DNA from: Minisyncoccota bacterium
GTDB taxonomy: Bacteria; Patescibacteriota; Minisyncoccia; Phycocordibacterales; UBA9973
Length of the DNA stretch: 54,025 bases
NCBI GenBank assembly: GCA_018063015.1
Contig: JAGORC010000002.1
Coordinates: 1-54,025, forward strand
Direction: 5' to 3'
Shown here: piece after piece, positions 3,545 through 39,970 of the stretch
How positions within the stretch are numbered: position 1 is the stretch's first letter
How the letters are laid out: each line of letters begins with the position of its first letter
Made by a program: the position numbers and the translations under genes
The notes under the pieces: model-generated
Told to the model about the DNA's origin: nothing
Databases searched by the model: none
What the model saw: the letters and a program-made list of their open reading frames with translations, nothing else

Positions 3545-3550
3545 TTTAAA

Positions 3551-4279: not shown

Positions 4280-4315
4280 GGCTGATCCGCCTAGTCGCGG
4301 AAAATAATAATCAAT

Positions 4316-22911: not shown

Positions 22912-24616
22912 AACATATTCGACGAACAGAGTACGTGCTTGCCAGAATTGTAAGCTTGATTTCACAATAGAATCTGAAGATTTTAATTTCTATGAAAAAA
23001 TAAAAGTTCCTCCACCGACTTGGTGTCCGGAGTGTAGACAACAGAGACGTTATGCTTGGAGAAACGAGCGTACCTTATATAGAAGGAACTGTGATTTGTG
23101 TAATAAAAGTACTGTAACAATATATTCTCCAAACAAATCTTATAAAGTATATTGCAATTTTTGCTGGTGGAGTGATGGATGGGATTCGGCTTCTTACGGT
23201 AGAGATTTTGATTTTTCTCGTCCATTCTTTGAACAATTTAGAGAACTTCAACTAGACACTCCACGGATGGCTTTATTAAATAAAAATAGTACTAATTCAG
23301 AATACACAAATCATTCAGCTAATAACAAAGATGTCTATCTTTCGTTTTGTGTTTTTGACGGTGAGAATGTAATGAATAGTACTTGGGTTATGAAAAATTC
23401 TAGGGATTGTCTTGATTGTAGTTTTATTTATGAGAAAGGAGAGAGGCTGTATGAATGCATAGATTCTCGGTCTTCATATGGATCTCAGTATAGTTTATTT
23501 TTAAAGGATTGTTCAAACGTTTTTTATTCATTTGATTGTAGAAGTTCGAATGATTGCTTCTTATCTTCTAACTTACGTAATAAAAGTTATGTTTTTAAAA
23601 ACAAGCAGTATTCTAGGGAGGAGTATTTTGAAAAATTAAAAGAGTATAATCTTTCTTCATTTGAGACTAGAGAGAGATTAAATAAAGAATTTAAAGATAT
23701 GCTTGAGAATAGTGCTATATTTCGTTATGTAATCAGTGAAAGAAATATAAATTCTACAGGTTCATTAATGTTTGATTGTCGAAATGTTAAGTATTCTTTT
23801 GAAGTAGAAAAAGATGAAAATTGTAAATATATTTACGGAGGCCCTGAGCTAAAGGATTGTATGGACTTGTATCACGTAGGATACAATACAGAGCTTTGTT
23901 ATGAATGTCAGGGATGCACGAGGCTTTCTAATTGTCAGTTTTGTCATCTGTGTTATGACAATATGAACGTTATGTATTCTGACACTTGCCAAAATAGCCA
24001 GAATTTATTTGGTTGTGTATCTGTTAAAAAAGGGGAGTATATGATTTTCAATAAAAAATATTCCAAGGAAGACTTTCTGGTTCTTAAAGAAAAAATAATT
24101 GAACATATGAAAAAAACAGGTGAGTATGGAGAATTCTTCCCTCCTCAGATTGCACCTGTTTATTACAATGAGACACAGGGTAATCTTTATGCACCTATGA
24201 CCAAAGAGAAGGTTTTATCTTTAGGCTGGCAATGGGAAGATAACACTCCAGGAACCGTAGGCAAAGAAACAATAGATATTTTCTCTATACCAGACAGAAT
24301 AGAGGATGCACCAGATTCGTATTTAAAAGAAATTTTTGCCTGCATGGAATGCTCAAAGAACTACAATATATCTCAAAATGAGTTACTTTTTTATAAAAAA
24401 GAAAAAATTCCATTACCAAGAAGATGTCCAAACTGTAGATACAAAAGAAGATTTAATTTACGCCCTTTAAGACAACTTTGGCATAGAGAGTGTATGTGTG
24501 ACAAGAAACATTCTCATCATGAAGGAAAATGCGTAGAAGAATTTGAAACTTGTTATGCTCCAGATAGACCTGAGATAGTTTATTGCGAGAAGTGTTATAA
24601 CTCAGAGGTATATTGA
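22895..24616 (+). CDS. Cys-rich double-zinc-ribbon protein, paralog 1 (function unknown)
   Basis: 573 aa. Its ATG lies 17 nt inside the grpE 3' end. N-terminal CQNC...CPECR plus CDLC-x17-CNFC; Cys-ladder core; C-terminal CMEC...CPNCR plus ...YCEKCY. No signal peptide or TM. Confidence 0.85.
   Translation: MESQTKTYSTNRVRACQNCKLDFTIESEDFNFYEKIKVPPPTWCPECRQQRRYAWRNERTLYRRNCDLCNKSTVTIYSPNKSYKVYCNFCWWSDGWDSASYGRDFDFSRPFFEQFRELQLDTPRMALLNKNSTNSEYTNHSANNKDVYLSFCVFDGENVMNSTWVMKNSRDCLDCSFIYEKGERLYECIDSRSSYGSQYSLFLKDCSNVFYSFDCRSSNDCFLSSNLRNKSYVFKNKQYSREEYFEKLKEYNLSSFETRERLNKEFKDMLENSAIFRYVISERNINSTGSLMFDCRNVKYSFEVEKDENCKYIYGGPELKDCMDLYHVGYNTELCYECQGCTRLSNCQFCHLCYDNMNVMYSDTCQNSQNLFGCVSVKKGEYMIFNKKYSKEDFLVLKEKIIEHMKKTGEYGEFFPPQIAPVYYNETQGNLYAPMTKEKVLSLGWQWEDNTPGTVGKETIDIFSIPDRIEDAPDSYLKEIFACMECSKNYNISQNELLFYKKEKIPLPRRCPNCRYKRRFNLRPLRQLWHRECMCDKKHSHHEGKCVEEFETCYAPDRPEIVYCEKCYNSEVY
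22976..23038 (+). repeat. conserved 63-nt tract at the 5' end of paralog 1 (62/63 identical to 24670-24732)
   Basis: GAAGATTTTAATTTCTATGAAAAAATAAAAGTTCCTCCACCGACTTGGTGTCCGGAGTGTAGA, compared with the paralog 2 copy by hand. Confidence 0.9.
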
Positions 24617-24618
24617 TT

Positions 24619-26340
24619 ATGGAAACACGAAATTGTCAAAATTGTAAGAACGACTTTGTCATAGAACCTGAAGATTTTAATTTCTATGAAAAGATAAAAG
24701 TTCCTCCACCGACTTGGTGTCCGGAGTGTAGAATGATAAGAAGAATGTCTTGGAGAAACGTCAGATCACTCTATAAGCGTGAATGTGATTTGTGCAAAAA
24801 GTCCATTATAACAATGTATGATGAAAGTATGACTTCGCCTATTTATTGTCGAAGTTGTTTCTATGGTGATGGGTGGAACCCGATGGACTACGGAGTAGAC
24901 ATTGATTGGACTAAACCATTTCTTACTCAATGGAAAGAGCTCTGGGATAAAATTCCCAAGTACTCGCTTCTTTCTTGGAAAAATTCTCAAAATTCTGATT
25001 ATGCAAACATAGTAATTAATTCTAAAGATTGTTACTTGTCTTATTCTATTGTTGAGTCTGAAAAAATTCTTTATTCCGAAAACATAGATAACTCTCAAGA
25101 ATTAGTAGATTGTTATATGTGCATTGAAGGATGTGATTCTTGCTACTATACCCAAGGCAGAGGGAATTATGGAGGGAAATATTTATCACAATGCGTTAAC
25201 TGTGTTAACGTAAATTTTTGCTTTGATTGTAATAATTGCCAAGATTGCTTCATGTCTTATAACTTAAGAAACAAGAAATACGTATTTCGTGGAGTACAGC
25301 TTGGTGCAGAAGAATACAAGGAAGCTCTTGAAAAAGAGAATTTAGCAAGTCGTATGTCCTTAGATAAATTATATACAGAGTGGGTTAGTATGATTGAAGA
25401 GAAGGCGATACATCAGTATGCAAGAATAATCTTAGGTAAGGATTCCACAGGTAACTTCCTAAAGGGTGTAAAGAATATAAAGCATTGTTTCAATACATAT
25501 GATTCAGAAAATCTAGCATATGGAGCAAGAGGTATAAAATCAAAAGACGCATACGATTTTTATGGGTTAGTTGGGGAACTTACTTATGAGACCGTAGGGT
25601 GCTCATTTGGTGCATATGGGAATTTATTCTCTTTTAACTGCGATGCCAACAGAAGCATAGAGTACACTGCACTGTCATCAAATAGTTCTGATCTGTATGG
25701 TTGTGTCTCCTTACAGAAGAAACAACATTGTATCTTAAATAAACAATATTCTAAAGATGAATATTTTTCTCTTGTAGATAAAATAAGGAAGCATATGGAT
25801 GAAATGCCTTATATTGACGAGAAGGGAAGAGTATATAAATATGGTGAATTTTTCCCATTCGAGTTTTCTCCCTTTGGATATAACGAAACTTTCTGCCTGG
25901 ACTTCTTTACAACGACAGAGGTCGAAGCAAAAAATATGGGATATAAATGGAGAACTCAAAAAGAAAGAAATCATCTTGTTGATATAAAGACACAAGATGT
26001 TCCAGATAAAATATCAATAGTAGATGAAGCTATTTTAAATAAAGTTATAGAATGTAAACATTATGCAAGTGGATCGTTATCCTGTAATCATCAATGTACA
26101 GAAGCATTCAGGATTACTTATGATGAATTATTGTTCTATAAAAAATGGAATATACCACTTCCTAGACTTTGTCCAAATTGTAGGCATTACGAGAGGTTGC
26201 CTGTTTTTATGCAACCGATGAAACTCTGGCATCGAAAATGTATGAAGGATGGATGTACAAATGAATTTGAAACCTCATATTCTCCTGATAGGCCGGAAAT
26301 AGTATATTGCGAAACTTGTTATAACGCTGAAGTTTACTAA
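24619..26340 (+). CDS. Cys-rich double-zinc-ribbon protein, paralog 2
   Basis: Starts METRNCQNCK at an ATG 2 nt after the paralog 1 stop (the track's TTG at 24613 is rejected). Same architecture as paralog 1. Confidence 0.85.
   Translation: METRNCQNCKNDFVIEPEDFNFYEKIKVPPPTWCPECRMIRRMSWRNVRSLYKRECDLCKKSIITMYDESMTSPIYCRSCFYGDGWNPMDYGVDIDWTKPFLTQWKELWDKIPKYSLLSWKNSQNSDYANIVINSKDCYLSYSIVESEKILYSENIDNSQELVDCYMCIEGCDSCYYTQGRGNYGGKYLSQCVNCVNVNFCFDCNNCQDCFMSYNLRNKKYVFRGVQLGAEEYKEALEKENLASRMSLDKLYTEWVSMIEEKAIHQYARIILGKDSTGNFLKGVKNIKHCFNTYDSENLAYGARGIKSKDAYDFYGLVGELTYETVGCSFGAYGNLFSFNCDANRSIEYTALSSNSSDLYGCVSLQKKQHCILNKQYSKDEYFSLVDKIRKHMDEMPYIDEKGRVYKYGEFFPFEFSPFGYNETFCLDFFTTTEVEAKNMGYKWRTQKERNHLVDIKTQDVPDKISIVDEAILNKVIECKHYASGSLSCNHQCTEAFRITYDELLFYKKWNIPLPRLCPNCRHYERLPVFMQPMKLWHRKCMKDGCTNEFETSYSPDRPEIVYCETCYNAEVY
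24670..24732 (+). repeat. conserved 63-nt tract at the 5' end of paralog 2
   Basis: One mismatch (A/G) against 22976-23038. Confidence 0.9.
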
Positions 26341-26855
26341 CTTTTCATTGCTTCAAGAAAAGACTTCGTTGTCTCTGGGTCAAGCTTGTCGGTGACTATT
26401 ATCATAAGCTCAGTAGTAAGATCTAGATCCTTTTTAATATTTGTGAAAAGGTGTTCATATGGGTAGGGTGATATCCAAACTGTATTTTTCACACAGACAA
26501 AGTTTGCCTTCTTTAGTAAGTAACGAAGTGCTTCTCGCTCACTCTTTCTATCTTCACCAATATCCAAAATTATTATCCTCCAAAGTCCATCCCAGGTAAG
26601 GGGAGCCAGAGCTTCTCCTGTCTCAAGTCGCAGGCTATTTACCTTCACCTTACCTTTTTTTGTTATTTTTACGTAGTCTTCACGTCCGGAACTATGTACC
26701 TCAGCGTAACCGCCTTCTATGAGGTTTTTAAGGGCCCTAGAGAGTGCATAGCAGGTTTTAGGATCATCTGCACCCTTTATATTATCTAGAGAGATAGCTG
26801 GCTTTTCAGCCAAAATCTTCAATATTTTCTTGGAATATCCTGATTTACTTGACAT
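26337..26855 (-). CDS. PaaX-like winged-helix transcriptional regulator (tentative)
   Basis: 172 aa. N-terminal wHTH-like segment (ILKILAEKPAISL...ALSRALKNLIEGGY), then WDGLWRIIILDIGEDRKSEREALRYLLKKANFVCVKNTVWISPYP, which resembles the PaaX middle domain. Its stop overlaps the paralog 2 stop by 4 nt, convergently. Confidence 0.45.
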   Translation of the reverse strand: MSSKSGYSKKILKILAEKPAISLDNIKGADDPKTCYALSRALKNLIEGGYAEVHSSGREDYVKITKKGKVKVNSLRLETGEALAPLTWDGLWRIIILDIGEDRKSEREALRYLLKKANFVCVKNTVWISPYPYEHLFTNIKKDLDLTTELMIIVTDKLDPETTKSFLEAMKS

Positions 26856-26881
26856 GGATATATTTTAGCATATATACTGTC

Positions 26882-26919
26882 TTTGACAAGTATTTTGCGA
26901 CCACGAAAAACTTGTCAAA
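26882..26919. promoter_or_regulatory. perfect 10-bp inverted repeat TTTGACAAGT-N18-ACTTGTCAAA (candidate operator)
   Basis: Arms at 26882-26891 and 26910-19. It lies in the divergent intergenic region between the PaaX-like gene and the DUF3467-like/dnaK unit. Each arm contains a -35-like hexamer. Confidence 0.55.
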
Positions 26920-26940
26920 ATAAGTAAGTTTGTATATAAT
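26912..26940 (+). promoter_or_regulatory. candidate promoter TTGTCA-17 nt-TATAAT for the small ORF + dnaK
   Basis: The -35 hexamer at 26912-26917 is the right arm of the inverted repeat. TATAAT lies at 26935-26940. Confidence 0.4.
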
Positions 26941-26978
26941 AGGTGGGTCAAAGGTTATTAACATAAAATATTAAAAAT

Positions 26979-27257
26979 ATGATAGATCCAAAAAAAGTAG
27001 ATTTTAATCAATTACCAAAGAAGTTCTGTGATGGAGCTCTTGGAGCTTTCGGGAAGGATGCAGTTATGTTTGCCATAACTTCTGGGAGCAATCTTGATCC
27101 ATATGCAACTACTCCCAGGATGGCAAAAAATATTGCAATATTTTTCAACCAACAAATTGAGAAATACGAAAAGCAATTCGGAGTAATAGATATGAGCCCA
27201 CCACTGATCCCAAGTCCCATTCAAGCAACTGACTTAGGTGATGAAAATAAAAAATAA
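26979..27257 (+). CDS. small conserved hypothetical protein (DUF3467-like, from memory)
   Basis: 92 aa. ...MAKNIAIFFNQQIEKYEKQFGVI resembles the C-terminal block I associate with DUF3467. It lies 36 nt upstream of dnaK. Confidence 0.4.
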   Translation: MIDPKKVDFNQLPKKFCDGALGAFGKDAVMFAITSGSNLDPYATTPRMAKNIAIFFNQQIEKYEKQFGVIDMSPPLIPSPIQATDLGDENKK

Positions 27258-27293
27258 ATTAAAATTATAAGTTTAATAAAAAATAAAAAACAT

Positions 27294-29222
27294 ATGAGTA
27301 AAATTTTAGGTATAGATTTAGGAACAACAAACTCTGCTTTCGCTATTATCGAAGGTGGAGAACCAAAGATATTAGAAAATGCAGAAGGTGCACGAACTAC
27401 ACCTTCTATCGTAGCTACTGCTAAAAACGGCGATAGGCTTGTTGGAGTACTTGCTAAGCGTCAGTCTGTTACAAATCCTAAGAATACTATTTTCCAAATA
27501 AAGAGATTCGTAGGACATTCGTTCGATGAAGCAGATGTTCAGAAGGATATTCAAGCAGTTCCGTTTGAGGTTAAGAAATCTGATAATGGAGGTATTGATG
27601 TAAAAATGGGAGATAAGTATTACAGACCAGAAGAACTTTCTGCAATGATTCTTCAGAAAATAAAGGCAGATGCTGAAGCTAAAACAGGGGAGAAAATTAC
27701 AGAAGCTGTTATTACAGTTCCAGCATATTTCAACGATGCGCAAAGAAAGGCAACTAAGGATGCAGGACAGATTGCAGGACTTGATGTAAAGAGAATAATC
27801 AATGAGCCAACAGCTGCAGCGCTTGCTTATGGATTTAACAAAAAGAAAAATGAGAAGGTAGCAGTTTTTGACTTTGGAGGTGGAACATTCGATGTTTCTA
27901 TACTTGAGGTTGGGGAGGATGTGGTAGAGGTTAAGTCTACCGATGGAGATAGTCACCTAGGAGGTAAGGACATCGACCAGAAGATAATAAATTGGCTTGC
28001 TGATGGATTCCAGAAAGAGCACGGTATAGATCTAAGAAAAGATGCTTTGTCTAAGCAGAGACTAGATGATGCAGCAGAGAAGGCAAAGATAGAACTCTCT
28101 ACTGCAGTTGAATCTGAAATAAATATCCCATTCATAACATCTAGTGATGCAGGACCTCTGCACCTTGTTCGTACAATGAAACGTGCTGACTTAGAAGAAG
28201 TTTGTCGTGAATTCGTAGATCGTGCAATGATGATTACCAAGCGCGCTATAGAAGCTTCACCATTTAAGGTAGGTGATATAAATGAAGTAATACTTGTAGG
28301 TGGTCAGACTAGAATGCCTATGATTCAGAGCGAAGTTGAGAAATTCTTCGGCAAGAAGCCTCATATGGGAGTAAACCCTGATGAAGTTGTAGCATTAGGT
28401 GCTGCAGTTCAAGCTGGAGTTCTACAAGGAGATGTTAAGGATGTGCTACTTTTAGACGTTATTCCACTTTCACTAGGCATCGAGACATTAGGAGGAGTAG
28501 CTACAAAGCTAATAGAAAGAAATACAACAATTCCAGCTAGTAAATCTCAAGTATTCTCAACAGCAGCTGATAATCAGACATCTGTTGAAATACATATAGT
28601 TCAAGGTGAGCGACCAATGGCAACCGACAACAAATCTCTAGGACGATTTATCCTAGACGGAATCCCGCCAGCACCTCGAGGTATGCCTCAGGTTGAGGTA
28701 TCATTTGATGTGGATGCAAACGGAATTCTAAATGTGACAGCCAAGGATAAAGCATCAGGCAAAACTCAATCAATCAAGATTGAAGCAAGTTCAGGATTAA
28801 AGGAAGAAGACATCAAGAAGATGCAGTCTGATGCAGAAGCTCATGCAGAAGAAGACAAGAAGAAGAAAGAACTCGCTGATGCCAAGAATAATGCTGAGAT
28901 GATGATTTACACCGCTGAGAAAGCAGTGAAGGATAATGAAGCAAAGATTCCTGAAGACTTGAAGAAGAGCGTACATATAAAGATTGAAGAACTAAAAGCA
29001 GTTAAGGATGGAACAGATGGACAAATGATAAAGACAAAGAGTGATGAGCTCTCTACTGAGATGTCTAAGATAGGTGAAGCGGTTCAGAAGGCAGGAGGAC
29101 CAACTCCAGAAGGAAATGAAACCAACCCTTCGACAGGATCAGGGCAAGCAGAAGAACCAGCAAAAACTACAGACGCTGAGTTTAAAGAAACTCCACCAGA
29201 AGGTGAAGCACCAAAAGCTTAA
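27294..29222 (+). CDS. dnaK: molecular chaperone DnaK (Hsp70)
   Basis: [17 protein letters not shown]-type [23 protein letters not shown], and a substrate-binding domain and lid. Confidence 0.97.
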
Positions 29223-29232
29223 TACACTAACT

Positions 29233-29256
29233 AAAGGCCCCGAAAGGGGCTTTTTA
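29233..29256 (+). terminator. rho-independent terminator after dnaK
   Basis: AAAGGCCCC-GAAA-GGGGCTTTTT. Confidence 0.75.
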
Positions 29257-29270
29257 GTTTGAGTTTTTAT

Positions 29271-29279
29271 TGATATAAT
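29271..29279 (+). promoter_or_regulatory. extended -10 element TGATATAAT only 8 nt before the ATPase-1 ATG
   Basis: TGn at 29271-29273 and TATAAT at 29274-29279; the ATG is at 29288. This implies a leaderless or near-leaderless transcript if the element is functional. Confidence 0.3.
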
Positions 29280-29287
29280 TAAACAAT

Positions 29288-31432
29288 ATGGAATTTAAAG
29301 ATTTACCTGAGAATAGGGACCTTACCTATATTGGGATGACTACCTATAGAGAGGAGCATAAGCTTTTCGGCATTAAGCGAAAGGACCGTCGTCAGCATGT
29401 CTACATACTAGGTAAATCAGGAACAGGTAAATCTGTACTTATGTTCAACATGATAATTCAGAACATCAAGAATGGTGAAGGTGTTTGTGTTGTTGACCCA
29501 CACGGAGAGCTTGTAGAAGGAGTGCTGTCCGCAATACCTCCTGAAAGAGTAAAGGATGTTGTCTACTTCAATCCTGCAGACACAGGATATCATATAGGGT
29601 TTAATGTTCTTGAACTTGTTGATTCTAAGTATAAACATCTTGTGGCTTCAGGACTCATGGGAATATTTACCAAGATTTGGGCAAACGCATGGAGTGCCAG
29701 AATGGAATATATTCTAAACAATGCTATCTTGGCCTTACTCGACACACCAGGTTCCACACTTCTCGGTATTCCTAGAATGCTTGTGGATAAAGATTATCGT
29801 CAGCAGATTATCTCTAATCTTAAAGATCCAGTTATTAAAGCTTTCTGGGTTCATGAATACGAAGCTTGGCAGGATAAATTTAGAAATGAAGCTATTGCTC
29901 CTATTCAGAACAAGGTGGGTCAGTTCCTCTCTACTTCAATAATAAGAAACGTCGTCGGCCAGTCTCAAAGTACCATAAATGTTTTCGACATAATGAACAC
30001 TGGTAAAATTTTCCTAGTAAATGTATCTAAGGGTAGAATAGGTGAAGACAACTCAGCACTTCTAGGAGGTATGATAATCACCAAGGTTCAACTTGCAGCG
30101 ATGGAACGTGTTCGTATTCCAGAAGAAGAAAGAAGAGATTTCTATCTATATGTCGACGAGTTTCAAAACTTCGTAACCGATGCCTTTGCCGGAATTCTTT
30201 CTGAGGCTCGTAAATACAGATTAAATCTAACTATAGCTCACCAGTATACAGCTCAGCTTGCCACTAAGGACAGCTCAGCAATGAGAGATGCAGTTTTCGG
30301 TAACGTTGGAACAATGATTATATTTAGAGTAGGTGCTGATGATGCGGAATTCCTAGAGAAAGAATTTGAGCCAGAATTTACTCCACAAGATATAGTCAAC
30401 CTTCCAAACTATAAAATTTATCTCAAGCTTATGATAGATGGTATAACTTCTCGTCCTTTTTCATCCAAGACTCTTCCTCCTTTAGTAAAATCTGGAAATA
30501 AGGAAATTGAAGACGAAGTAATCAAATCTTCTAGAGCACTTTATTGTAGGCCAAAGGAAGTGGTTGAAGAAGAAATAAATACATGGAGTGGAATGATGAC
30601 CGGGGATGATCTAGCTACAGGAGAGAAGTTCGACGCTGTGTGTTCTATCTGCAAGAAAGCAGCCACAGTTCCGTTTAAACCAGAGCCAGGAAGGCCTGTT
30701 TATTGTAAAGACTGTATAGGTAAAATAAAGTCTGGAGATTTCAAAGCCAAGAGGGGAGCTGGAGGTAAGATTGAATATGATGAATCAACATTTTATAAAC
30801 CTCTTTCAGATTTAGGTATTGAATTTCAAGCTAAGGATAGTAATCTAAATCAATCACCTTATAAACAAGATTCAAGACCTGTATCACCTAGAGGTAATGG
30901 TGTATTTTCAAAAATCAAAAACACCTTCATACCTCCAAAGAAAGATGCAACAGGGCAATCAATTAAACACAAAGAAGTGTATATCAATCCAAGGACTAAA
31001 GAACAACCAAAAGATAAACCAAGAGATAATTCTGCATTAAGAGAAATATTAAACAAAACTCTAAATGAGAATAAGGTATTCGAAGACAAGAAACCAGAAG
31101 TAAAACTTGAAGAGAGGCCTACTCCAGAACCAATATCTCTGGACTCTCTTAAGTCTAAGCCAGAGATTAATAAAATAACTCCAGCCAAAGACAGAAGCGC
31201 AAATGCTGAAGAAATGAATAAGCTGAAGGATCTTATTTCAGGTCAAACAGAAGTAAATTCTCCTCTACCAAAAGTAGAACCAAAGGTTGAACCTAAGCCT
31301 CAGCCAAAGGCTGATCAGCCTCCGGTTGAAGAACCCCCGAAAGTAGCACAATCAATCCCTAGCCAACCAGAACAACCTAAGACTAATGTTCGAGAAGTCC
31401 CAGAGGATGTATTAAAGAAAATCTTAGAATAA
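29288..31432 (+). CDS. soluble VirD4/TraD-like P-loop ATPase with C-terminal CxxC-x17-CxxC zinc ribbon and a long low-complexity tail (ATPase 1)
   Basis: Walker A ILGKSGTGKS at about residue 42 with no preceding TM helix. Also DPHGEL, Walker [26 protein letters not shown], then CSICKKAATVPFKPEPGRPVYCKDC, then a Lys/Pro/Glu-rich tail. Confidence 0.8.
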   Translation: MEFKDLPENRDLTYIGMTTYREEHKLFGIKRKDRRQHVYILGKSGTGKSVLMFNMIIQNIKNGEGVCVVDPHGELVEGVLSAIPPERVKDVVYFNPADTGYHIGFNVLELVDSKYKHLVASGLMGIFTKIWANAWSARMEYILNNAILALLDTPGSTLLGIPRMLVDKDYRQQIISNLKDPVIKAFWVHEYEAWQDKFRNEAIAPIQNKVGQFLSTSIIRNVVGQSQSTINVFDIMNTGKIFLVNVSKGRIGEDNSALLGGMIITKVQLAAMERVRIPEEERRDFYLYVDEFQNFVTDAFAGILSEARKYRLNLTIAHQYTAQLATKDSSAMRDAVFGNVGTMIIFRVGADDAEFLEKEFEPEFTPQDIVNLPNYKIYLKLMIDGITSRPFSSKTLPPLVKSGNKEIEDEVIKSSRALYCRPKEVVEEEINTWSGMMTGDDLATGEKFDAVCSICKKAATVPFKPEPGRPVYCKDCIGKIKSGDFKAKRGAGGKIEYDESTFYKPLSDLGIEFQAKDSNLNQSPYKQDSRPVSPRGNGVFSKIKNTFIPPKKDATGQSIKHKEVYINPRTKEQPKDKPRDNSALREILNKTLNENKVFEDKKPEVKLEERPTPEPISLDSLKSKPEINKITPAKDRSANAEEMNKLKDLISGQTEVNSPLPKVEPKVEPKPQPKADQPPVEEPPKVAQSIPSQPEQPKTNVREVPEDVLKKILE

Positions 31433-31433
31433 A

Positions 31434-33137
31434 ATGCAACCTGAAACCAGAAATTGCCAGAATTGTAAAAATGATTTCATAATAGAAACTGAAGATTTTA
31501 ATTTCTACGAAAAGATAAAAGTCCCTCCACCGACTTGGTGTCCAGAATGTCGTGTTGAAAGAAGACTTTCTTTTGTTAATGCTTGGAACATATTTTGGCG
31601 TAATTGTGATAAATGTGGGAACAAGACAATGTCTGCATATCATCCAGATGAAAAAATGAAAGTTTTTTGTCAGCCTTGTTGGTGGAAAGATGATTGGGAT
31701 GGTACAGAGTATGCAATGGAATATAACCCTAATAAACCATTTCTAGAACAGGTAAAGGAACTCCAAGATAAAACTCCTCATGTAGCTCTTGAAACTAACT
31801 ATACTACTTTAAAAAATTCAGAATATTGTAATGGGGTAGCATGGGTTAAGGATTGCTATCTTACTTTCTGGGCTGATTATTGCGATAACGTTTTTTATTC
31901 CTCAATATTAAATAACTTAAAATATAGTTCGGATTGTTTAAGAGCTCAAGATTCCGAGCTATGTTATGAAGCTATCGGTATAAGCAAGTGTTACCAAACT
32001 TTCTTTTCTGAAGAATGCGATGCATGTGTAGATGTTTGGTTTTCCCGTAATTGTTACAGTTGCACAAATTGCATCGGATGTGCCAATCTTAGAGGAGCAT
32101 CATATTGCATTTTTAATATTAAATACAGTAAGGAGGAATTTGAACAGAAAGTAAAAGAATTAAGATTAGATTCATGGCGAGGACTACAAGAATTAAAGGA
32201 AGAAGCTAGAAAATTTTGGGTTACAAAACCAAAAAGAGAATACAATGGTAACACTTTAAATAAAAATGTTACTGGTGAATATGTTTTTAATTCAAAAAAT
32301 GCAAAAGAGATGTATGTATGTGTTGGTGCCGAGGATTGTAAATGGTGTCAATTTATAAGTGTAGGCCCAGCTAAAGAATGTATTGACTATTCAGGATGGG
32401 GTAATAACGTCAGCCAGATGTATGAGTGCGGTAATGTAGGGGAAAACGCAGCACAATGTAAATTTTCTTTTTACTGTTTTCCAGATAGTTTAAATCTTGA
32501 GTATTGCGGGTGGTGTACATCTGGTAAAAATAATCTCGGATGTATGAACCTAAAAAGAAAACAATACTGTATTTTAAATAAACAATATTCAAAAGAAGAA
32601 TTTGAAAAGCTAAAACTTAAAATTTTAGAAGATATGAAAGTTAACCCTTATGTTGATAAATTAGGACGGAATTTTTTTTATGGAGAATTTTTTCCACTTG
32701 AATTTAGTAAGTTTCCTTATAATAAATCAAACGCGATAAGATTTTTTCCAAAAAAGAAAGAAGACGCTATAACTCAAGGGTATTATTGGTTAGAGTCAGA
32801 AAATTTATCGTCAAACATCTCCATAGAATCATCTAGCTTACCAGACAGTATTAATGATACTAATGAATTAATTTTGAATGATATTATATCCTGTTCTCTA
32901 TGTAGAAAGGGATATAAGGTAACAAAGGGAGAGCTTGATTTACTAAGAAAATTAAAAATTCCATTACCCCACGAATGTCCAAAATGTAGAGAAAACGATA
33001 GATTTAATAGATGTAACTCACCTAAGCTGTACCAAAGAAGTTGCGATAAGTGCAAAAAGGAAATTAGTAGTGCTTTCTCACCAAATCGAGCAGAGATAGT
33101 TTATTGCGTTGAGTGTTATCAAGCAGAATTTTTATAA
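31434..33137 (+). CDS. Cys-rich double-zinc-ribbon protein, paralog 3
   Basis: 567 aa, starting 1 nt after the ATPase-1 stop. Same architecture; CDKC-x17-CQPC and CDKC-x17-CVEC. Confidence 0.85.
   Translation: MQPETRNCQNCKNDFIIETEDFNFYEKIKVPPPTWCPECRVERRLSFVNAWNIFWRNCDKCGNKTMSAYHPDEKMKVFCQPCWWKDDWDGTEYAMEYNPNKPFLEQVKELQDKTPHVALETNYTTLKNSEYCNGVAWVKDCYLTFWADYCDNVFYSSILNNLKYSSDCLRAQDSELCYEAIGISKCYQTFFSEECDACVDVWFSRNCYSCTNCIGCANLRGASYCIFNIKYSKEEFEQKVKELRLDSWRGLQELKEEARKFWVTKPKREYNGNTLNKNVTGEYVFNSKNAKEMYVCVGAEDCKWCQFISVGPAKECIDYSGWGNNVSQMYECGNVGENAAQCKFSFYCFPDSLNLEYCGWCTSGKNNLGCMNLKRKQYCILNKQYSKEEFEKLKLKILEDMKVNPYVDKLGRNFFYGEFFPLEFSKFPYNKSNAIRFFPKKKEDAITQGYYWLESENLSSNISIESSSLPDSINDTNELILNDIISCSLCRKGYKVTKGELDLLRKLKIPLPHECPKCRENDRFNRCNSPKLYQRSCDKCKKEISSAFSPNRAEIVYCVECYQAEFL
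31454..31531 (+). repeat. 78-nt 5' tract, 75/78 identical to 33159-33236 (paralog 4)
   Basis: TTGCCAGAATTGTAAAAATGATTTCA[T/C]AATAGAAACTGAAGATTTTAATTTCTACGAAAAGATAAAAGT[CC/TT]CTCCACC, aligned by hand. Confidence 0.9.
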
Positions 33138-33138
33138 T

Positions 33139-34845
33139 ATGAAACCCGAAAATAAAACTTGCCAGAATTGTAAAAATGATTTCACAATAGAAACTGAAGA
33201 TTTTAATTTCTACGAAAAGATAAAAGTTTCTCCACCAACCTTTTGCCCTAGGTGTAGGCTTATTCGTAGAATGACGAATACAAACGAACGTGTCTTATAC
33301 AAGAGGAAGTGTGATTTAACAGGGGAGTCCATTCTAAGCATGTTTCCTGAGGACGCTCCATTTCCAGTATATAAATCAGAAGCTTGGTATTCTGATGATT
33401 GGGATCCATATAAATACGGCATGGAGTATGATTTCTCTCGACCATTCTTCGAACAATTTCAGAAATTACTAAATAAAGTTCCCCGAATGGCTCTTGTAAA
33501 ACAAGGATTATCTAAGAATAGTGAATACACTCATAGGGTTCATGATATGAAGGATTCTTATATGGTCTTTCGTATGAGTGGAAGTCAGGATTCTATGTAT
33601 TCTTATGTTGGGAAAAATATTATAAATTGTGTTGATTGTTTAAGTATTTGGGATTCTGAGCTATGTTATGAGTGCATAGATTGTAACAACTGCTATAAGG
33701 TTAGATTTACAGAAGAGAGTCACGATTGTCGAGATTCTTTCTTCTTGTATGCATGCAGGAATTGTTCTGATTGTGTCGGATGTATTAATTTAGTAAATCA
33801 GCAATACTGTATTTTAAATCAAAAATATACAAAAGAAGAATATCAAGAAAAAATAAAAGAATTAAGATTAAACACCTTTTCGGGCATTGAAAGTTTTAAA
33901 GAAAAGTTTGAAGAATTCAAAAAAGATTTTCCAATCAAGGCAGTACATTCTCTAAAGTCAAATAATATTTCAGGTAATTGGATTGTGAATTGTCAAAATG
34001 TAAAAAACTCCTTTGGCTGTCTAAATGTAAAGGATGGTAAGAACCTATTTTGGATATTCAATGCACAAGACTGTATGGATTATTTCCAGTGGGGCAACAG
34101 TGCAGAGCTCGTGTATGAATCTGAGAATGTAGGAATAAACGTGTCTAGAATAAAATTCTCTTCTCAATGCTGGATGGGAGCACACGATTTGACTTACTGT
34201 GACTCATGTCCTGGAGCTAAGAATTGCTTTGGTTGTATAGGTACTAAACAAGGAGAATATTCAATTTTGAATAAAAAATACACCAAAGAAGAATATGAAG
34301 CTATGTTGCCTAAAGTAATAGAACATATGAACAATATGCCTTATATAGACGAACAGGGAATAGTATATAAATATGGAGAAAATTTCCCAATTTCTTTATC
34401 ACCATTTGCCTACAACGAAACCGCAGCAATGGATTTCTTCCCATTAACCAAGAATGAAATAGAAAATCTTGGGTATAAATGGAAAGAGAAGGAAAAGAAG
34501 AATTATCAAACAACAATAAAGAGTAATGATTTACCAGAAACGATATTAGAGACAGGAGAAAATATACTAAATGAGGTTATAGAGTGTGCCGAAAAAGATA
34601 AAGAATATTCAGTTGGAGCATATAAGATAACAGAGAATGAGCTCTCTTTTTACAAAAGAATGGACTTACCTTTACCTAGGGTATGTTTCGATGTAAGGCA
34701 CAAGAGACGTTTGATTAGACGTCCACAGCCTAATTTGTATGATAGAGTATGTACTAAGTGTAACGCAGAAGTAAAAACTGTTTACGATCAATCCCGTGCA
34801 CCAATAGTTTATTGCGAGAAATGTTATCAGCAAGAAGTATATTAA
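33139..34845 (+). CDS. Cys-rich paralog 4, with two partly degenerate zinc ribbons
   Basis: Starts MKPENKTCQNCK at an ATG 1 nt after the paralog 3 stop (the track start at 33109 is rejected). The N-terminal second ribbon and the C-terminal first ribbon have lost cysteines. Confidence 0.85.
   Translation: MKPENKTCQNCKNDFTIETEDFNFYEKIKVSPPTFCPRCRLIRRMTNTNERVLYKRKCDLTGESILSMFPEDAPFPVYKSEAWYSDDWDPYKYGMEYDFSRPFFEQFQKLLNKVPRMALVKQGLSKNSEYTHRVHDMKDSYMVFRMSGSQDSMYSYVGKNIINCVDCLSIWDSELCYECIDCNNCYKVRFTEESHDCRDSFFLYACRNCSDCVGCINLVNQQYCILNQKYTKEEYQEKIKELRLNTFSGIESFKEKFEEFKKDFPIKAVHSLKSNNISGNWIVNCQNVKNSFGCLNVKDGKNLFWIFNAQDCMDYFQWGNSAELVYESENVGINVSRIKFSSQCWMGAHDLTYCDSCPGAKNCFGCIGTKQGEYSILNKKYTKEEYEAMLPKVIEHMNNMPYIDEQGIVYKYGENFPISLSPFAYNETAAMDFFPLTKNEIENLGYKWKEKEKKNYQTTIKSNDLPETILETGENILNEVIECAEKDKEYSVGAYKITENELSFYKRMDLPLPRVCFDVRHKRRLIRRPQPNLYDRVCTKCNAEVKTVYDQSRAPIVYCEKCYQQEVY
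33159..33236 (+). repeat. 78-nt 5' tract matching paralog 3
   Basis: See 31454-31531. Confidence 0.9.
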
Positions 34846-34847
34846 TT

Positions 34848-36512
34848 ATGGAAACAAGAGAATGCAAAAAATGTAATAAAAGTTTCTCCATGGATAAAGA
34901 CGAACTTGGGTTCTATGAGAAGATGAATGTTCCAATACCTAAGGTTTGTCCTGATTGTCGATTTGTTATGAAAGCTCTTTTTAGAAATGAGACAACTCTC
35001 TATTCAGGTAGAAAATGTGATTTATGTGGCAAATCTATAATATCAATCTATCATCCAAAATCCCCATATACTATTTACTGTTATGATTGCTTTTATTCTG
35101 AAAAATGGGACGCAAAAAATTATGCACTAGATTATGATGAGTCCAAGCCATTCTTAGATCAGTTCAAGGAATTAATGTTAAAAGTTCCTAAAATCAATAC
35201 TTACGTTTCTCTCGGCGGCGGTCCCAACATAAATAGTGATTATACAAATATGACTAGTGGAGCAAGGAATTCTTATCTTATTTTTAATACTACGGTTGCT
35301 GAAGATACTATGTATACAAGAGGTCTGAGGAACGTGAAAGATTCTTGTGATCTTTATTTTGGAACAAATGTTGAACGTTGCTACGACTCTATTAATGTTC
35401 AAGAATCTAATGGGATTCTGTGGAGTCAGAATGTTAGTGGATGTGTTGATTCAGCTTTTATATTAAATGGGCGAGGGCTAATCAATTGTTTTGGTTGCGT
35501 TAATTTAAACAATAAATCATATTATTTTCTTAATAAACAACTCACCCCAGAAGAATATCAAGAAAAAGTTAAGGAAATAATGGGCTCATATGAAAAGATA
35601 GAAAAATTTAAACAAGAGTTTAAAGAATTTGCTTCTAAATTTCCAAGAAGAGAAAACAATAATATACAAACAAAAGATTCTTCAGGAGATTATATTTTTA
35701 GATCCAAAAATGTAAAAGACTCATTTGAAGTAGCAAATAGTGAATATTGCCGGTACGCTTATTCTTCTAAAGAGATGAAAGATTCCTATGGCATCATAGG
35801 TTATGGTGTAAAATCAGAAAAAATGCTTGAAGTAGTTGCAACTGGATTTTCAAGTAATGTAATAGGTTCTTACGGACTAGAAAATTCTACAAATACTTTG
35901 TACGGATTTTATATACGTGGTTGCAATAATTGTATTGGTTGTGATGGACTACACCACGCGGATTATGCGATTTTAAATAAAACTTACTTAAGAGAAGAAT
36001 ATGAGCGATTAAAAAATAAAATTATTAAAGAACTTACTGACCAAGACCTGTATGGATTAATGATACCTCCACAACTTGCACCTTTTGCATACAATGAAAC
36101 CATTGCTCTATATGAGTCTCCATTAGAAAAAGAGGAAGTCATTAAAACGGGTTGGAGATGGGAAGATGATGTTCAGAAAACCGAAGGACAAGAAACTATT
36201 AAATCAGAAAATATTACAGATAATATTAAAAATATTAATAATTCTATAATTAAAGAAATCCTCAAATGTATTGATTGTTTTAGAAATTACAAAATTACCG
36301 AACAGGAATTTATTTTTTACAAAAAGATGAATATTCCCATACCTAGAAAATGTTTCTTTTGTCGTCACAAAGATCGAATACAGAAAAGGGGACCATATAA
36401 ATTCTGGGATAGAAAATGTGTTAAATGCGATAAGGGTATAGTAACTAACTATTCCCCAGAAAGGCCAGAGATAGTTTATTGCGAGAAATGTTATCAGCAA
36501 GAGGTTTATTAG
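34848..36512 (+). CDS. Cys-rich double-zinc-ribbon protein, paralog 5 (most divergent N-terminus)
   Basis: Starts METRECKKCNK at an ATG 2 nt after the paralog 4 stop. CDLC-x17-CYDC and CVKC-x17-CEKC. Confidence 0.85.
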   Translation: METRECKKCNKSFSMDKDELGFYEKMNVPIPKVCPDCRFVMKALFRNETTLYSGRKCDLCGKSIISIYHPKSPYTIYCYDCFYSEKWDAKNYALDYDESKPFLDQFKELMLKVPKINTYVSLGGGPNINSDYTNMTSGARNSYLIFNTTVAEDTMYTRGLRNVKDSCDLYFGTNVERCYDSINVQESNGILWSQNVSGCVDSAFILNGRGLINCFGCVNLNNKSYYFLNKQLTPEEYQEKVKEIMGSYEKIEKFKQEFKEFASKFPRRENNNIQTKDSSGDYIFRSKNVKDSFEVANSEYCRYAYSSKEMKDSYGIIGYGVKSEKMLEVVATGFSSNVIGSYGLENSTNTLYGFYIRGCNNCIGCDGLHHADYAILNKTYLREEYERLKNKIIKELTDQDLYGLMIPPQLAPFAYNETIALYESPLEKEEVIKTGWRWEDDVQKTEGQETIKSENITDNIKNINNSIIKEILKCIDCFRNYKITEQEFIFYKKMNIPIPRKCFFCRHKDRIQKRGPYKFWDRKCVKCDKGIVTNYSPERPEIVYCEKCYQQEVY

Positions 36513-36541
36513 ATGTATAATTTGTGTTAAAATAGCTTTAT

Positions 36542-37993
36542 ATGCCAAGGCAGAATAGGGTTCAAATAATCAAATACGGTCCACCACCACCAGAGCTTCC
36601 TGTTTTCGGGAAAGTTGACCCCGAAGAAACATCTTTTATAGGACGAACGAACTACGTAGCTTCTCTTGAAGAAAAGAAGTTTATTTTTGGTATTAAGCGT
36701 GTAGATAGAAGAAGACACTTATATATCATAGGTAAGTCAGGAGTAGGAAAGACTAAACTCCTAGAGCTTCTAATTCGTCAGGATGTGACTTACAAACATG
36801 GGCTTTGTCTTATTGACCCGCATGGAGACGTCATTGATGCGATACTAGATTATATTCCTAAAGATCGAATTGAAGATGTGTGTCTTATTGACCCATCAGA
36901 TGTAGATTATCCCGCATCATTTAATCCTCTTGCAAACGTTGACCCAGCATTTAAATTTATTCTTACTCAAGGTTTGATAGAAGTTCTAGAGAAACAGTTC
37001 GGTGCGAACTGGACTCCTCGTCTTGAACACGTATTCCGATTTACTTGTCTTGCGTTGCTTGACTATCCTCATGCGACGATGCGTGGAATGATATCCATGC
37101 TTACTGATAGAAACTACAGACAGAAGGTTGTGGAATATATAACAGACGACATGGTTAAGAGATTCTTCGCAATAGAATTCGCTGATTGGTCTGAGAAATT
37201 CGATACCGACGCGATCATTCCGCTTGTTAACAAGCTAGGTCAGTTCCTGTCTGATCCACTCCTTCGAAACATATTCGGACAGAAAGAAAACAAAATTGAC
37301 ATAACTAGGCTTATGAATGAAGAGAAGATAGTACTGATAAATCTTTCAAAGGGACGAATCGGAGAAGAGAACTCTAGCTTCTTCGGTTCTATGTTCTTGA
37401 CCAAGATTAAGCAAGCTGGAATGGAACGTCAAAATATTCCAGAGAAAGACCGTAAAGATTTCTATCTATACATAGACGAGTTCCACAATATAGTCACTCA
37501 AACATTTGAAAACATTCTTTCCGAGGCTCGTAAGTATGCACTCAACTTAACAATAGCTCATCAATACATTGGTCAGCTTATTCCTCAGGTTCAACACGCA
37601 GTACTAGGAAATACAGGAAGTCTAATATGCTTTCGAGTTGGAGGTGAAGATGCAGTTAAGCTTAAACCAGAATTTGCACCACTTTTCGACGTCAAAGATA
37701 TGATCAATCTTGCTGTTACAGAATTCTACGTGAAGATGACAATAGATGGAGAATCCTATGATCCATTTTCAGCTGAGACTCTCAAAGTCTTACCACCACC
37801 ACATGTTTCCTATAGAGAGGAAATTTTAGAATCATCAAGAACAAAATATTCTATTCCTAAAGATGCTGCAGCCAAACTGATTGCCGAAGAAGAGTCCACA
37901 ATAATAAGAAGTGCAGAAGAAAAGGCAATCATAGAGGGTAAGCCAAGAAAAGACGACAAAATATCTTCACAAGAGGCTGAGCCTATGATATAG
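36542..37993 (+). CDS. soluble VirD4/TraD-like P-loop ATPase, ATPase 2 (no zinc ribbon or tail)
   Basis: [41 protein letters not shown]. It is collinear with the ATPase-1 core and ends about 60 residues after the core. Confidence 0.8.
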
Positions 37994-38003
37994 TTTTTTA
38001 ACT

Positions 38004-39101
38004 ATGAAGAAAGATTATTATGAAATTTTAGGCGTTAATAAGGGCGCTTCAAAAGACGAGATAAAAAAGGCTTTTTATAAGCTTGCTCATAAATATCACC
38101 CTGACAAGAAGGAAGGGGATGAGAAGAAATTTAAAGAGGTAAACGAAGCCTACCAGGTCCTTTCTGATGACTCTAAACGTTCAAAATATGACCAATTTGG
38201 CTCTGGATTTGAAAATATGGGTGGATTCCAGGGTGGAGGCCAACAAGGTGGATTTGGAGGGTTTGAGGGCTTTGATTTCGGAGGATTTCAGAATGGTGGA
38301 GCTGATTTTGACTTTGGGAATTTAAACGACATATTCAGTGATTTCTTTGGCGGAGGAATGGGTGGAGGACAACAGACCAAGAGAGGAAGAGACATATCAA
38401 CAGAACTGCAGATATCTTTTGAGGATTCTATATTTGGTGTTACTAGAAAAGTTTTAATAACCAAAACATCAAACTGTGACACATGTAGTGCTACTGGTTC
38501 TAAACCAGGAACCAAGATGGAGTCATGTAAGAAGTGTAACGGGCAAGGTAGAATTAGAGAAACCAAGAAATCTTTCTTAGGCACAATATCAAGTACTAAA
38601 GTCTGTGAAGATTGTTTCGGTAGAGGAGAAATTCCAAAAGAGAAATGTGATAAATGTAAGGGTGCTGGAGTCTTAAGAAAAGAAGAAGAAATATCCATCA
38701 TAATTCCTTCTGGAATAAGAGATGGAGAAATGATACGAATGACTGGTATGGGAGAAGCTATATCTCATGGAACACCTGGTGACTTGTATATAAAGATTAA
38801 TGTATTACCTCACTCTGTGTTTAGAAGAGAGGGTAGTGACTTAGTAATGACTCTGGATCTTAAACTTTCAGAAGCTTTACTAGGATTAGAACACAACATT
38901 ACAACTCTTGATGGAAATATAAAAGTAAAGATTCCAGAAGGTGTTTCAGTAAACGAAATTCTAAGAGTAAAAGGTAGAGGTGTCCCTACCGCTAAAGGCA
39001 AGAGAGGAGATATACTTATAAAACTTAATATTAAACTTCCTTCAAAGCTCTCTAAGAAGTCTAAAGAATTAATAGAAGAGTTAAAGAAAGAAGGAATATA
39101 A
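38004..39101 (+). CDS. dnaJ: molecular chaperone DnaJ
   Basis: J domain with HPD (KYHPDK), a G/F-rich region, and four CxxCxGxG repeats ([32 protein letters not shown]). Confidence 0.95.
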
Positions 39102-39103
39102 AA

Positions 39104-39970
39104 ATGAAAAACAAATCAATCAAAATAGGGTTAATTCAATCTAAGGTTTCTAAAAATCAAGAAGCAAATTTAAAACACACCAAGGACTTGGTAATCAAAG
39201 CTGCTAAACAAGGAGCAAAGGTTATTTGTTTACAAGAACTCTATAAGACTATATATTTCCCTCAATATAGCAGGATCAGTAAAGACCAATTTTCTGAATC
39301 AATACCAGGAGAATCAAGCAATGTGTTTAAAGAGATAGCAAAGAAATATAAAGTTGTTATTGTTGTGCCAATTTTTGAAAAGGACAGCAAGGGTAAATTT
39401 CATAATTCAGCGGTAGTTATAGACGAGAATGGTAAACTACTCCCCACTTACAGAAAGATACACATTCCTCAAGATCCTCTGTTTTACGAGAAAAATTATT
39501 TTGAAGATGGTGATAGTGGATACAAGGTATATAAGACAAAACACGCAACTTTTGCCGTGCTTATTTGTTACGATCAATGGTTCCCAGAAGCTGCAAGGTC
39601 AGTAAAGTTAGCTGGAGCTGATTTAGTATTTTATCCTACAGCAATAGGTAATATAAATGGTGTGAAAGAAAGTGAAGGTGACTGGCATAATGCATGGGAG
39701 ACTGTGATGCGAGGACATGCCATCGCTAATAGCTTATATGTGGCTGCTGTTAACAGAGTAGGAACAGAAGACAAGCTCACATTCTGGGGTCAATCCTTCG
39801 TAGCGGATTCTTTCGGCAAGGTTCTTAAAAGAGCTACAAAGTCTAAAGAAGAAATTCTTATAGCGGAAGTCAATTTAGACAATAATAAAAGAATAAGTAA
39901 TGAATGGGGATTTATGAGAAATCGCCGAACAGATACCTATAATACTCTCACAAAGAAGAAATCAAAATAA
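39104..39970 (+). CDS. aguB: N-carbamoylputrescine amidase (carbon-nitrogen hydrolase)
   Basis: CLQELY, YRKIHIP, ICYDQWFPE (catalytic Cys). Adjacent to agmatine deiminase. Confidence 0.75.
   Translation: MKNKSIKIGLIQSKVSKNQEANLKHTKDLVIKAAKQGAKVICLQELYKTIYFPQYSRISKDQFSESIPGESSNVFKEIAKKYKVVIVVPIFEKDSKGKFHNSAVVIDENGKLLPTYRKIHIPQDPLFYEKNYFEDGDSGYKVYKTKHATFAVLICYDQWFPEAARSVKLAGADLVFYPTAIGNINGVKESEGDWHNAWETVMRGHAIANSLYVAAVNRVGTEDKLTFWGQSFVADSFGKVLKRATKSKEEILIAEVNLDNNKRISNEWGFMRNRRTDTYNTLTKKKSK

Follow-up and report, generated by a model that had tools for sequence, protein, structure and literature searches.

A cysteine-rich Patescibacteria protein family with two internal duplications, encoded together with two TraD/VirD4-like ATPases in a grpE-dnaK-dnaJ operon

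The stretch of DNA analysed here (the window) comprises 54,025 nucleotides (nt) of the genome of a Minisyncoccota bacterium (GenBank assembly GCA_018063015.1; contig JAGORC010000002.1, positions 1 to 54,025, forward strand). The gene of interest, P3 (coordinates 31434 to 33137, forward strand), encodes a protein of 567 amino acids (aa) that includes 41 Cys residues (7.2%) and displays the full architecture described below; its sequence is identical to that of a 'hypothetical protein' recorded at NCBI for a Patescibacteria metagenome-assembled genome. Four paralogs are carried on the same strand. P1 (22895 to 24616; 573 aa), the start of which overlaps the end of grpE and the orthologs of which are 71–90% identical to it, is followed by P2 (24613 to 26340; 575 aa when counted from a TTG codon, with an ATG at 24619), and P3 is followed by P4 (33139 to 34845; 568 aa) and P5 (34848 to 36512; 554 aa). 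The paralogs share 38–43% identity with P1, and an alignment of all five contains 79 invariant columns. A conserved C-terminal tail (...CYQQEVY) is common to all of them.

P3 is a cytoplasmic protein with a double treble-clef Cys4 module at each end and a core of two repeat halves and a conserved connector between them. The N-terminal module (aa 1–95; 31434 to 31718) is followed by core half 1 (aa 96–252; 31719 to 32189), which consists of a conserved lead-in, a stretch of repeats, a half-ending motif and a helix. Core half 2 (aa 253–405; 32190 to 32648) is homologous to half 1 and ends with GCMNLKRKQYCILNKQYSKEEF. The connector (aa 406–477; 32649 to 32864; YGEFFP...F.YN...G.xW) leads into the C-terminal module (aa 478–567; 32865 to 33134), a homologue of the N-terminal one. 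Internal duplication gave rise to the pair of end modules and to the pair of core halves, and we hold this architecture, for P3 and its paralogs alike, with high confidence.

An earlier note on this DNA, made by reading the five translations, had proposed that the N- and C-terminal modules are homologous and that the core is itself duplicated, and had named repeat detection as the check. Sub-alignments cut from an alignment of 115 family sequences were compared using hhalign, which aligned the N-module with the C-module at a probability of 99.7% (E 3e-25, 84 columns) and core half 1 with core half 2 at 99.6% (E 5.5e-24, 139 columns), while control comparisons of a module with the core gave probabilities of at most 1%. 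Smith-Waterman comparison of the two modules gave z = 6.4–23.3 across the five paralogs, and the corresponding shuffle test for the core halves gave z = 8.1–15.0; in neither case did any of 500 shuffles reach the observed score. Both proposed duplications are therefore real and stand far above any effect of a Cys-rich composition. The motif GC..L....Y.I.NK.Y[ST].EE[YF], said to end each half, can be recognised by eye in both halves of all five proteins in their alignment, but its leading GC is absent from half 1 of P1 and P2.

In P3, finger 1 (C8, C11, C36 and C39) and, in the C-module, finger 3 (C487, C490, C515 and C518) are zf_Tbcl-like, and finger 2 (C58, C61, C79 and C82; aa 58–82) and finger 4 (C537, C540, C558 and C561; aa 537–561) have the form CxxC-x17-CxxC. 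This exact form also occurs at the N-termini of P1 and P2, the C-terminus of P4 and both termini of P5. Regular expressions reproduced each of the four 17-residue spacers previously quoted, but the C-terminal C..CY is followed by five residues before the stop (QAEFL in P3) rather than the four that had been counted. The 16 terminal Cys are 99–100% conserved in the 115 sequences. The description of two modules of four CxxC pairs in every protein holds for P3 and P5, where all eight pairs are complete, but not for the other three. In the C-module of P1 and P2 the spacings vary (CMCDKKHSHHEGKC and CMKDGC), with expanded pairs in finger 4 and, in P2, also in finger 3. P4 is left with four intact pairs, as the outermost fingers have been kept and fingers 2 and 3, which lie nearest the core, are without Cys. 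The same loss was found in three P4 orthologs from other species (63–66% identical), thus fingers 2 and 3 appear to be dispensable in one stable orthogroup.

The end modules correspond to known families, zf_Tbcl (PF13451) followed by zf_Tbcl_2 (PF23477, equivalent to the TIGR04272 domain). The C-terminus of P3 scored 31.4 bits against PF23477 (Pfam cut-off 27), whereas P1 scored 16.9 and the other paralogs had no match, and P3 scored 33.5 bits against NCBIfam TIGR04272 (cxxc_cxxc_Mbark; cut-off 36). Scores of 17.2–18.7 bits were obtained for P1–P3 against PF13451, for which the gathering threshold is 24, and P4 and P5 had no match to it in the Pfam scan. Some orthologs carry a precomputed PF13451 match, and it is likely that the paralogs are related to zf_Tbcl, with a membership that is formally sub-threshold. 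The earlier 'double zinc ribbon' is thus indeed a double Cys4 module, but not a new one, being a treble-clef-like combination of zf_Tbcl and zf_Tbcl_2.

In an AlphaFold2 (AF2) model of P3 the end modules have a predicted local distance difference test score (pLDDT) of ~90, and in each finger the first CxxC lies on a beta-hairpin knuckle and the second at the start of a helix; this predicted secondary structure fits a treble clef. Models of phage 'putative zinc-ribbon domain' proteins in BFVD superpose on the module with a probability of 1.00 and a root mean square deviation of 0.7 Å over 44 columns, and among these viral structures matches were found to the zinc fingers only, with none to the rest of P3. 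In M. mazei, two small proteins with the TIGR04272-type CxxC-x17-CxxC motif have been found to bind zinc by inductively coupled plasma mass spectrometry (PMC12704099). From the family matches, the model, the conservation of the Cys residues and the zinc binding in M. mazei, we infer that P3 carries four structural Zn(Cys)4 sites, zinc being assigned to them through family membership.

Each core half contains approximately ten 9-residue units of the form x-S/N-x-D/N-[C/S/V/A]-x-x-x-[F/Y], and this register is seen in all five paralogs. In half 1 of P3 the repeats occupy aa 128–226 (~ten units, x-S-x-D/N-C/S/V-x-x-x-F/Y) and are followed by NLxxxxY.I.N..Y.KEE and a helix. Autocorrelation of Cys positions in core half 1 peaked at lags of 3, 9 and 18, and half 1 of P3 contains 8 Cys-Cys pairs at lag 9 where 1.5 are expected (p<0.001), with a similar result for P4. 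The periodic Cys spacing that had been remarked on is therefore present with a period of 9, but is significant in half 1 of P3 and P4 and not in that of P1 or P5, because the latter have few core Cys. The run CxxCxxCxxC, described as frequent in the core, does occur, but with only 4 instances across all five proteins and none in P1 or P5. The absence of the ferredoxin motif CxxCxxCxxxCP and the DnaJ motif CxxCxGxG was confirmed for all paralogs by regular expression, and no Pfam match to a 4Fe-4S ferredoxin was found in them.

In a set of 149 sequences from three orthogroups, C213 and C370 are the only core Cys to be universal. Within an orthogroup the core Cys are at least 90% conserved, but each of the others gives way to S, A, V, L, I, G or N in some other orthogroup, suggesting that these are positions for small packing residues and not obligate metal ligands. 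The core 'Cys ladder' thus appears to represent small, probably buried positions of a 9-residue, probably solenoid-like repeat, and the multi-metal (zinc or Fe-S) scaffold previously suggested for it does not agree with the exchange of all but two core Cys between orthogroups. An additional metal site specific to one orthogroup, such as that which CYSCTNCIGC in P3 could form, may nevertheless exist.

The fold of the core could be modelled only in part. The full-length AF2 model of P3 had a pLDDT of 82 and a predicted template modelling (TM) score of 0.84, but values of 50–73 in the repeat regions, and a run on the core using the more diverse alignment of 149 sequences was worse (pLDDT 71; repeat region 46–64). 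The connector is among the best-conserved and most confidently modelled parts (pLDDT mostly 89–95), and it has no match to a known family. No match to the core was found in Pfam, NCBIfam or PADLOC, nor among PDB sequences, where both P3 alone and a family profile gave only sub-threshold LIM matches on the C-module. A Foldseek search of the PDB returned nothing significant, with one match at E 8.7 for the full-length model and non-significant matches only for the core model. The structure prediction and Foldseek search that had been recommended therefore gave a divided answer, with confident end modules but a repeat region of low pLDDT and no significant match in the PDB. Nearly all of the 35 sub-threshold matches (E 1.0–10, TM ~0.1) are left-handed beta-helix proteins (LpxD, GlmU, LpxA, gamma-carbonic anhydrase, serine acetyltransferase and eIF2B), which is a hint from low-confidence models and not evidence. 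As two 9-residue units make 18 residues, the length of one coil of a left-handed beta-helix, a beta-solenoid fold is plausible for the modelled core.

The family is very large. A search with the single P3 sequence found at least 7065 matches among 8000 scored candidate representatives of 90%-identity clusters, and a profile search found at least 2238 clusters (50% identity) at E <=1e-30; among the 150 matches listed by the profile search, nearly all are full length (~530–610 aa). Where a source is named, it is nearly always a Paceibacteria-type member of the Patescibacteria, including Nomurabacteria, Jorgensenbacteria, Giovannonibacteria, Staskawiczbacteria, Niyogibacteria, Liptonbacteria and Sungiibacteria, apart from a few generic or doubtful bin labels, one of them on a contig labelled Gammaproteobacteria. 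By these sequence matches, the family has been seen only in Patescibacteria. At source, members are annotated only as 'hypothetical', 'zinc-ribbon domain containing' or 'CxxC-x17-CxxC domain-containing' proteins. A tblastn search of phage and plasmid collections gave no homologues, thus carriage of the family by mobile elements is not evident.

Every window paralog used as a query has an orthogroup of its own, with 60–78% identity (90% for the closest single relative of P1), indicating that the paralogs are old and individually conserved. In a near-identical genome (GenBank accession number GCA_030917775.1; locus coordinates 3165 to 4916) a single gene for a 583-aa protein was found in place of P1 and P2 (22895 to 26340 in the window). 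Its product is a chimera of residues 1–26 of P1 and the body of P2 (98.6% identical to P2). A recombination or deletion event inside the conserved N-module would explain this, as would a collapse in the assembly.

The genes surrounding P3 were found to be those of an Hsp70 system and of two ATPases. The order is grpE, P1, P2, a PaaX_M-like gene on the reverse strand, a DUF3467-like open reading frame (ORF), dnaK, ATPase1, P3, P4, P5, ATPase2 and dnaJ, such that the grpE-dnaK-dnaJ operon (22327 to 39101) is interrupted by the five Cys-rich paralogs and the two ATPases. Junctions are gaps of 1–2 nt or overlaps, and P3 starts 1 nt after the end of ATPase1. The chaperone genes, all on the forward strand, are grpE (22327 to 22911; PF01025, E 3.5e-36), dnaK (27294 to 29222; HSP70) and dnaJ (38004 to 39101), the product of which has the canonical CXXCXGXG domain.

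ATPase1 (29288 to 31432, forward strand) and its paralog ATPase2 (36542 to 37993, forward strand), which is directly upstream of dnaJ, encode soluble P-loop ATPases that resemble TraD, VirD4 and HerA. ATPase1 carries a CxxC-x17-CxxC finger of its own (30641 to 30715; CSICKKAATVPFKPEPGRPVYCKDC), with scores of 46.7 bits against PF23477 and 47.8 bits against TIGR04272, both above the cut-off, followed by a low-complexity tail of ~235 aa that is rich in K, E and P. The ATPases match TrwB_AAD_bind, T4SS-DNA_transf and, weakly, CedD. Against the NCBIfam TraD/VirD4 models they score 48 bits where the cut-offs are 250–650, and thus neither qualifies formally as a type IV coupling protein (T4CP). Judged by eye, neither ATPase has a transmembrane or hydrophobic N-terminal segment, and neither virB4 nor a relaxase gene was found among the genes examined around the array.

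The gene neighbourhood was surveyed in 80 loci, each from a different GTDB species. These contain 207 family copies, 205 of which are on one strand, with at least two copies in 50 loci, at least four in 18 and up to nine within 22 kb or less. ATPase1 or ATPase2, which are 64–90% identical across lineages, was present in 29 loci, in 16 of which both flank the array, and dnaK, dnaJ or grpE was present in 12. A nested arrangement, grpE-P-dnaK-ATPase1-P(n)-ATPase2-dnaJ, was frequent, and dnaK-ATPase1-P(0–4)-ATPase2-dnaJ was repeated in dozens of metagenome loci. In the reciprocal survey, 80 metagenome loci were retrieved using ATPase2. A family gene was located immediately upstream in 56 of the 64 cases that could be assessed (ATPase1 was directly upstream in 5), and dnaJ immediately downstream in 61 of 62. 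As the ATPase2 proteins in these loci are 81–96% identical to the query, they represent closely related lineages and are not independent.

The gene on the reverse strand (26337 to 26855) is divergent from dnaK, and in its product of 172 aa a PaaX_M (Cas2-like) domain is accompanied by a winged-helix match that is weak and below threshold. As its placement is conserved in many loci, it is a candidate regulator of the operon and may be a heat-shock regulator in place of HrcA. Of the sigma-70-like sites in the region, the best two fall at 26849–26940, in the space between the PaaX_M-like gene and dnaK; a scan of the region for promoters and terminators gave counts no higher than in shuffled sequence. 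A 92-aa ORF just upstream of dnaK (26979 to 27257) has a weak match to DUF3467 (E 0.004) and was seen again in the near-identical genome and at two or more metagenome loci. Directly after dnaJ (39104 to 41002) are genes for a CN_hydrolase and a PAD_porph (agmatine deiminase-type) protein, labelled using the Pfam matches at the near-identical GCA_030917775.1 locus, and the pair looks like an agmatine-to-putrescine pathway.

We favour the explanation that the paralogs are zinc-stabilised partner or adaptor subunits of this conserved pair of soluble orphan TraD/VirD4-like ATPases, which their shared neighbourhood suggests. A pseudo-twofold scaffold of repeats would carry a LIM-like double finger at either end, the two being held by four structural zinc sites, and distinct paralogs would supply distinct specificities. 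The same CxxC-x17-CxxC finger in ATPase1 suggests a shared binding partner or direct contact. The paralogs and ATPases would share their expression with the Hsp70 system, the divergent PaaX_M-like protein being the probable regulator, and as they would be co-transcribed with GrpE, DnaK and DnaJ, a role in or alongside protein quality control or the stress response is probable. Taken as a blend of the architecture and the ATPase link, this explanation falls a little short of an even chance. A bolder form, in which the paralogs are the missing partners of the orphan ATPase pair present in nearly every Patescibacterium and together with GrpE, DnaK and DnaJ form a hitherto unrecognised, Patescibacteria-specific, ATP-driven machine with swappable subunits, is unlikely. 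In such a machine the zinc-finger/solenoid subunits would choose the cargo, protein or nucleic acid, to be remodelled or exported.

Several findings weigh against the favoured explanation. The link between paralogs and ATPases is positional, and as a functional one it is held tentatively, being possible but on balance doubtful. Nesting with dnaK or dnaJ was seen in just 12 of the 80 species-level loci, and 12 of the 31 full-length loci have a single copy and lack an ATPase within 10 kb. The P3 orthologs often stand alone among housekeeping genes, and conversely, at eight ATPase2 loci, both ATPases are present but are not separated by a family gene. Neither the full-length nor the core AF2 run gave a confident model of the core fold, and the presence of zinc is presumed by analogy, through membership in a class of zinc-binding domains.

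The same genes could be read in terms of nucleic acid, with the paralogs binding DNA or RNA via their treble-clef fingers and handing it over to, or regulating, TraD/FtsK/HerA-type translocases, for instance in DNA uptake, repair or segregation. Treble-clef and zinc-ribbon fingers commonly bind nucleic acid, and the families matched by the ATPases are DNA-translocating coupling proteins, but all of these matches are far under the curated cut-offs. Several solitary copies lie among translation or RNA genes, and a transcription-related role has been proposed for the M. mazei CxxC-x17-CxxC proteins (PMC12704099). However, the family scored with none of the recognised DNA- or RNA-binding domains, nucleases and helicases are absent from its partners, and the operon partners are chaperones and not genes of DNA metabolism. 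This reading is considered improbable.

It is less probable still that the paralogs are effectors exported by a type IV system, with the T4CP-like ATPases recruiting them as substrates and DnaK and DnaJ keeping them competent for secretion. The position of the arrays beside coupling-protein homologues and the conserved C-terminal tail of all paralogs are as expected of such substrates, and in a Saccharibacterium other type IV secretion system genes were found to be essential to epibiotic growth (PMC12102498). However, in the same study T4CP homologues were seldom near virB4, and epibiotic growth did not require the one that was tested. The ATPases show no N-terminal transmembrane segment and the paralogs no signal peptide, both judged by eye, and the N-terminus of the latter begins directly with the zinc-finger module. 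Orthologs that are 60–78% identical across lineages, with 16 invariant Cys, are atypically conserved for effectors, and tightly folded zinc proteins translocate poorly.

The location of family genes inside grpE-dnaK-dnaJ in many Nomurabacteria-like genomes, and their Cys-rich products with zinc centres, would also suit Hsp70 co-chaperones, holdases or redox switches resembling the DnaJ zinc-finger domain or Hsp33, to which the ATPases would be incidental. However, no J-domain, CxxCxGxG motif or similarity to Hsp33 was detected using Pfam, NCBIfam and regular expressions, and it is the ATPases, not dnaK and dnaJ, that are retained by the arrays of distant lineages, making this a very unlikely role. 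A core built as a multi-metal or Fe-S scaffold is hardly credible and is the rival least compatible with the conservation data, for although the Cys are dense, periodic (with CxxCxxCxxC in half 1 of P3 and P4) and well conserved within an orthogroup, all but two give way to V, L, I, A, S, G or N elsewhere, P1 and P5 have few core Cys in what is presumably the same fold, and ferredoxin- or radical-SAM-type motifs are lacking.

The genomes of the ultra-small Patescibacteria are about 1 Mb in size or smaller. Despite this, some lineages carry up to nine 1.7-kb copies in one array, in orthogroups conserved at 60–78% identity, and this expenditure of coding capacity implies an important, lineage-defining function. 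The zinc fingers themselves are known domain families, and a search of the literature on the domain names and on Cys-rich and zinc-ribbon families of Patescibacteria found no description of the P3 family. The duplicated architecture, the core repeat domain, the expansion of paralogs and the association with orphan ATPases and a dnaK operon are therefore new as far as the searched literature goes. The core domain, for which Pfam, NCBIfam and the PDB gave no relative, is a good target for structure determination.

Among known systems, the M. mazei small proteins (TIGR04272/PF23477) have the same motif and spacing as fingers 2 and 4. However, characterised CxxC-x17-CxxC members are stand-alone small proteins, whereas here the finger is half of a double module, and that module is present at either end of a 567-aa protein whose core is novel. 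Fingers 1 and 3 align with the 'probable treble clef domain' PF13451 (C..C...F.I...E..FY.K..IP.P..CP.CR), but with sub-threshold scores, and in the P3 family this finger is always fused to a zf_Tbcl_2 finger.

The LIM domain, a protein-interaction module, likewise has eight ligands in two sequential treble-clef fingers, and the C-module has weak, sub-threshold sequence matches in the PDB to LIM domains of CRP and PINCH (E 0.04–0.3). The LIM consensus is C-x2-C-x16-23-H/C-x2-C-x2-C-x2-C-x16-21-C-x2-C/H/D, with a linker of 2 residues between the fingers. The ligands in P3 are all Cys and the linker is ~18 residues and not 2, thus the double module departs from this consensus and its likeness to LIM is an analogy at best.

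Short periodic repeats are shared by the core with left-handed beta-helix proteins such as LpxD, GlmU and gamma-carbonic anhydrase, and likewise with the Cys-ladder beta-helical antifreeze proteins. However, the period is 9 and not 6, no Hexapep match was found in Pfam (E <=1), and the superposition has a TM of ~0.1 on a low-confidence model. A hexapeptide left-handed beta-helix was considered for the P3 core, and membership was not supported by periodicity, hidden Markov model match or superposition.

The two ATPases most closely recall the orphan VirD4-type proteins of Patescibacteria. A survey of 2,918 Patescibacteria genomes counted 5,713 VirD4-type homologues, of which 148 are near virB4, and the orphans, about two per genome, were considered by its authors to be possible cases of exaptation; the homologue that was tested is not needed for epibiotic growth (PMC12102498). 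ATPase1 and ATPase2 agree with this pattern, being two in number and away from virB4. That study mentions neither zinc nor DnaK, and cysteine only in an unrelated context. Where the literature goes only as far as possible exaptation, the link between the P3 family, the ATPases and the Hsp70 system makes the role of the orphan ATPases a testable question.

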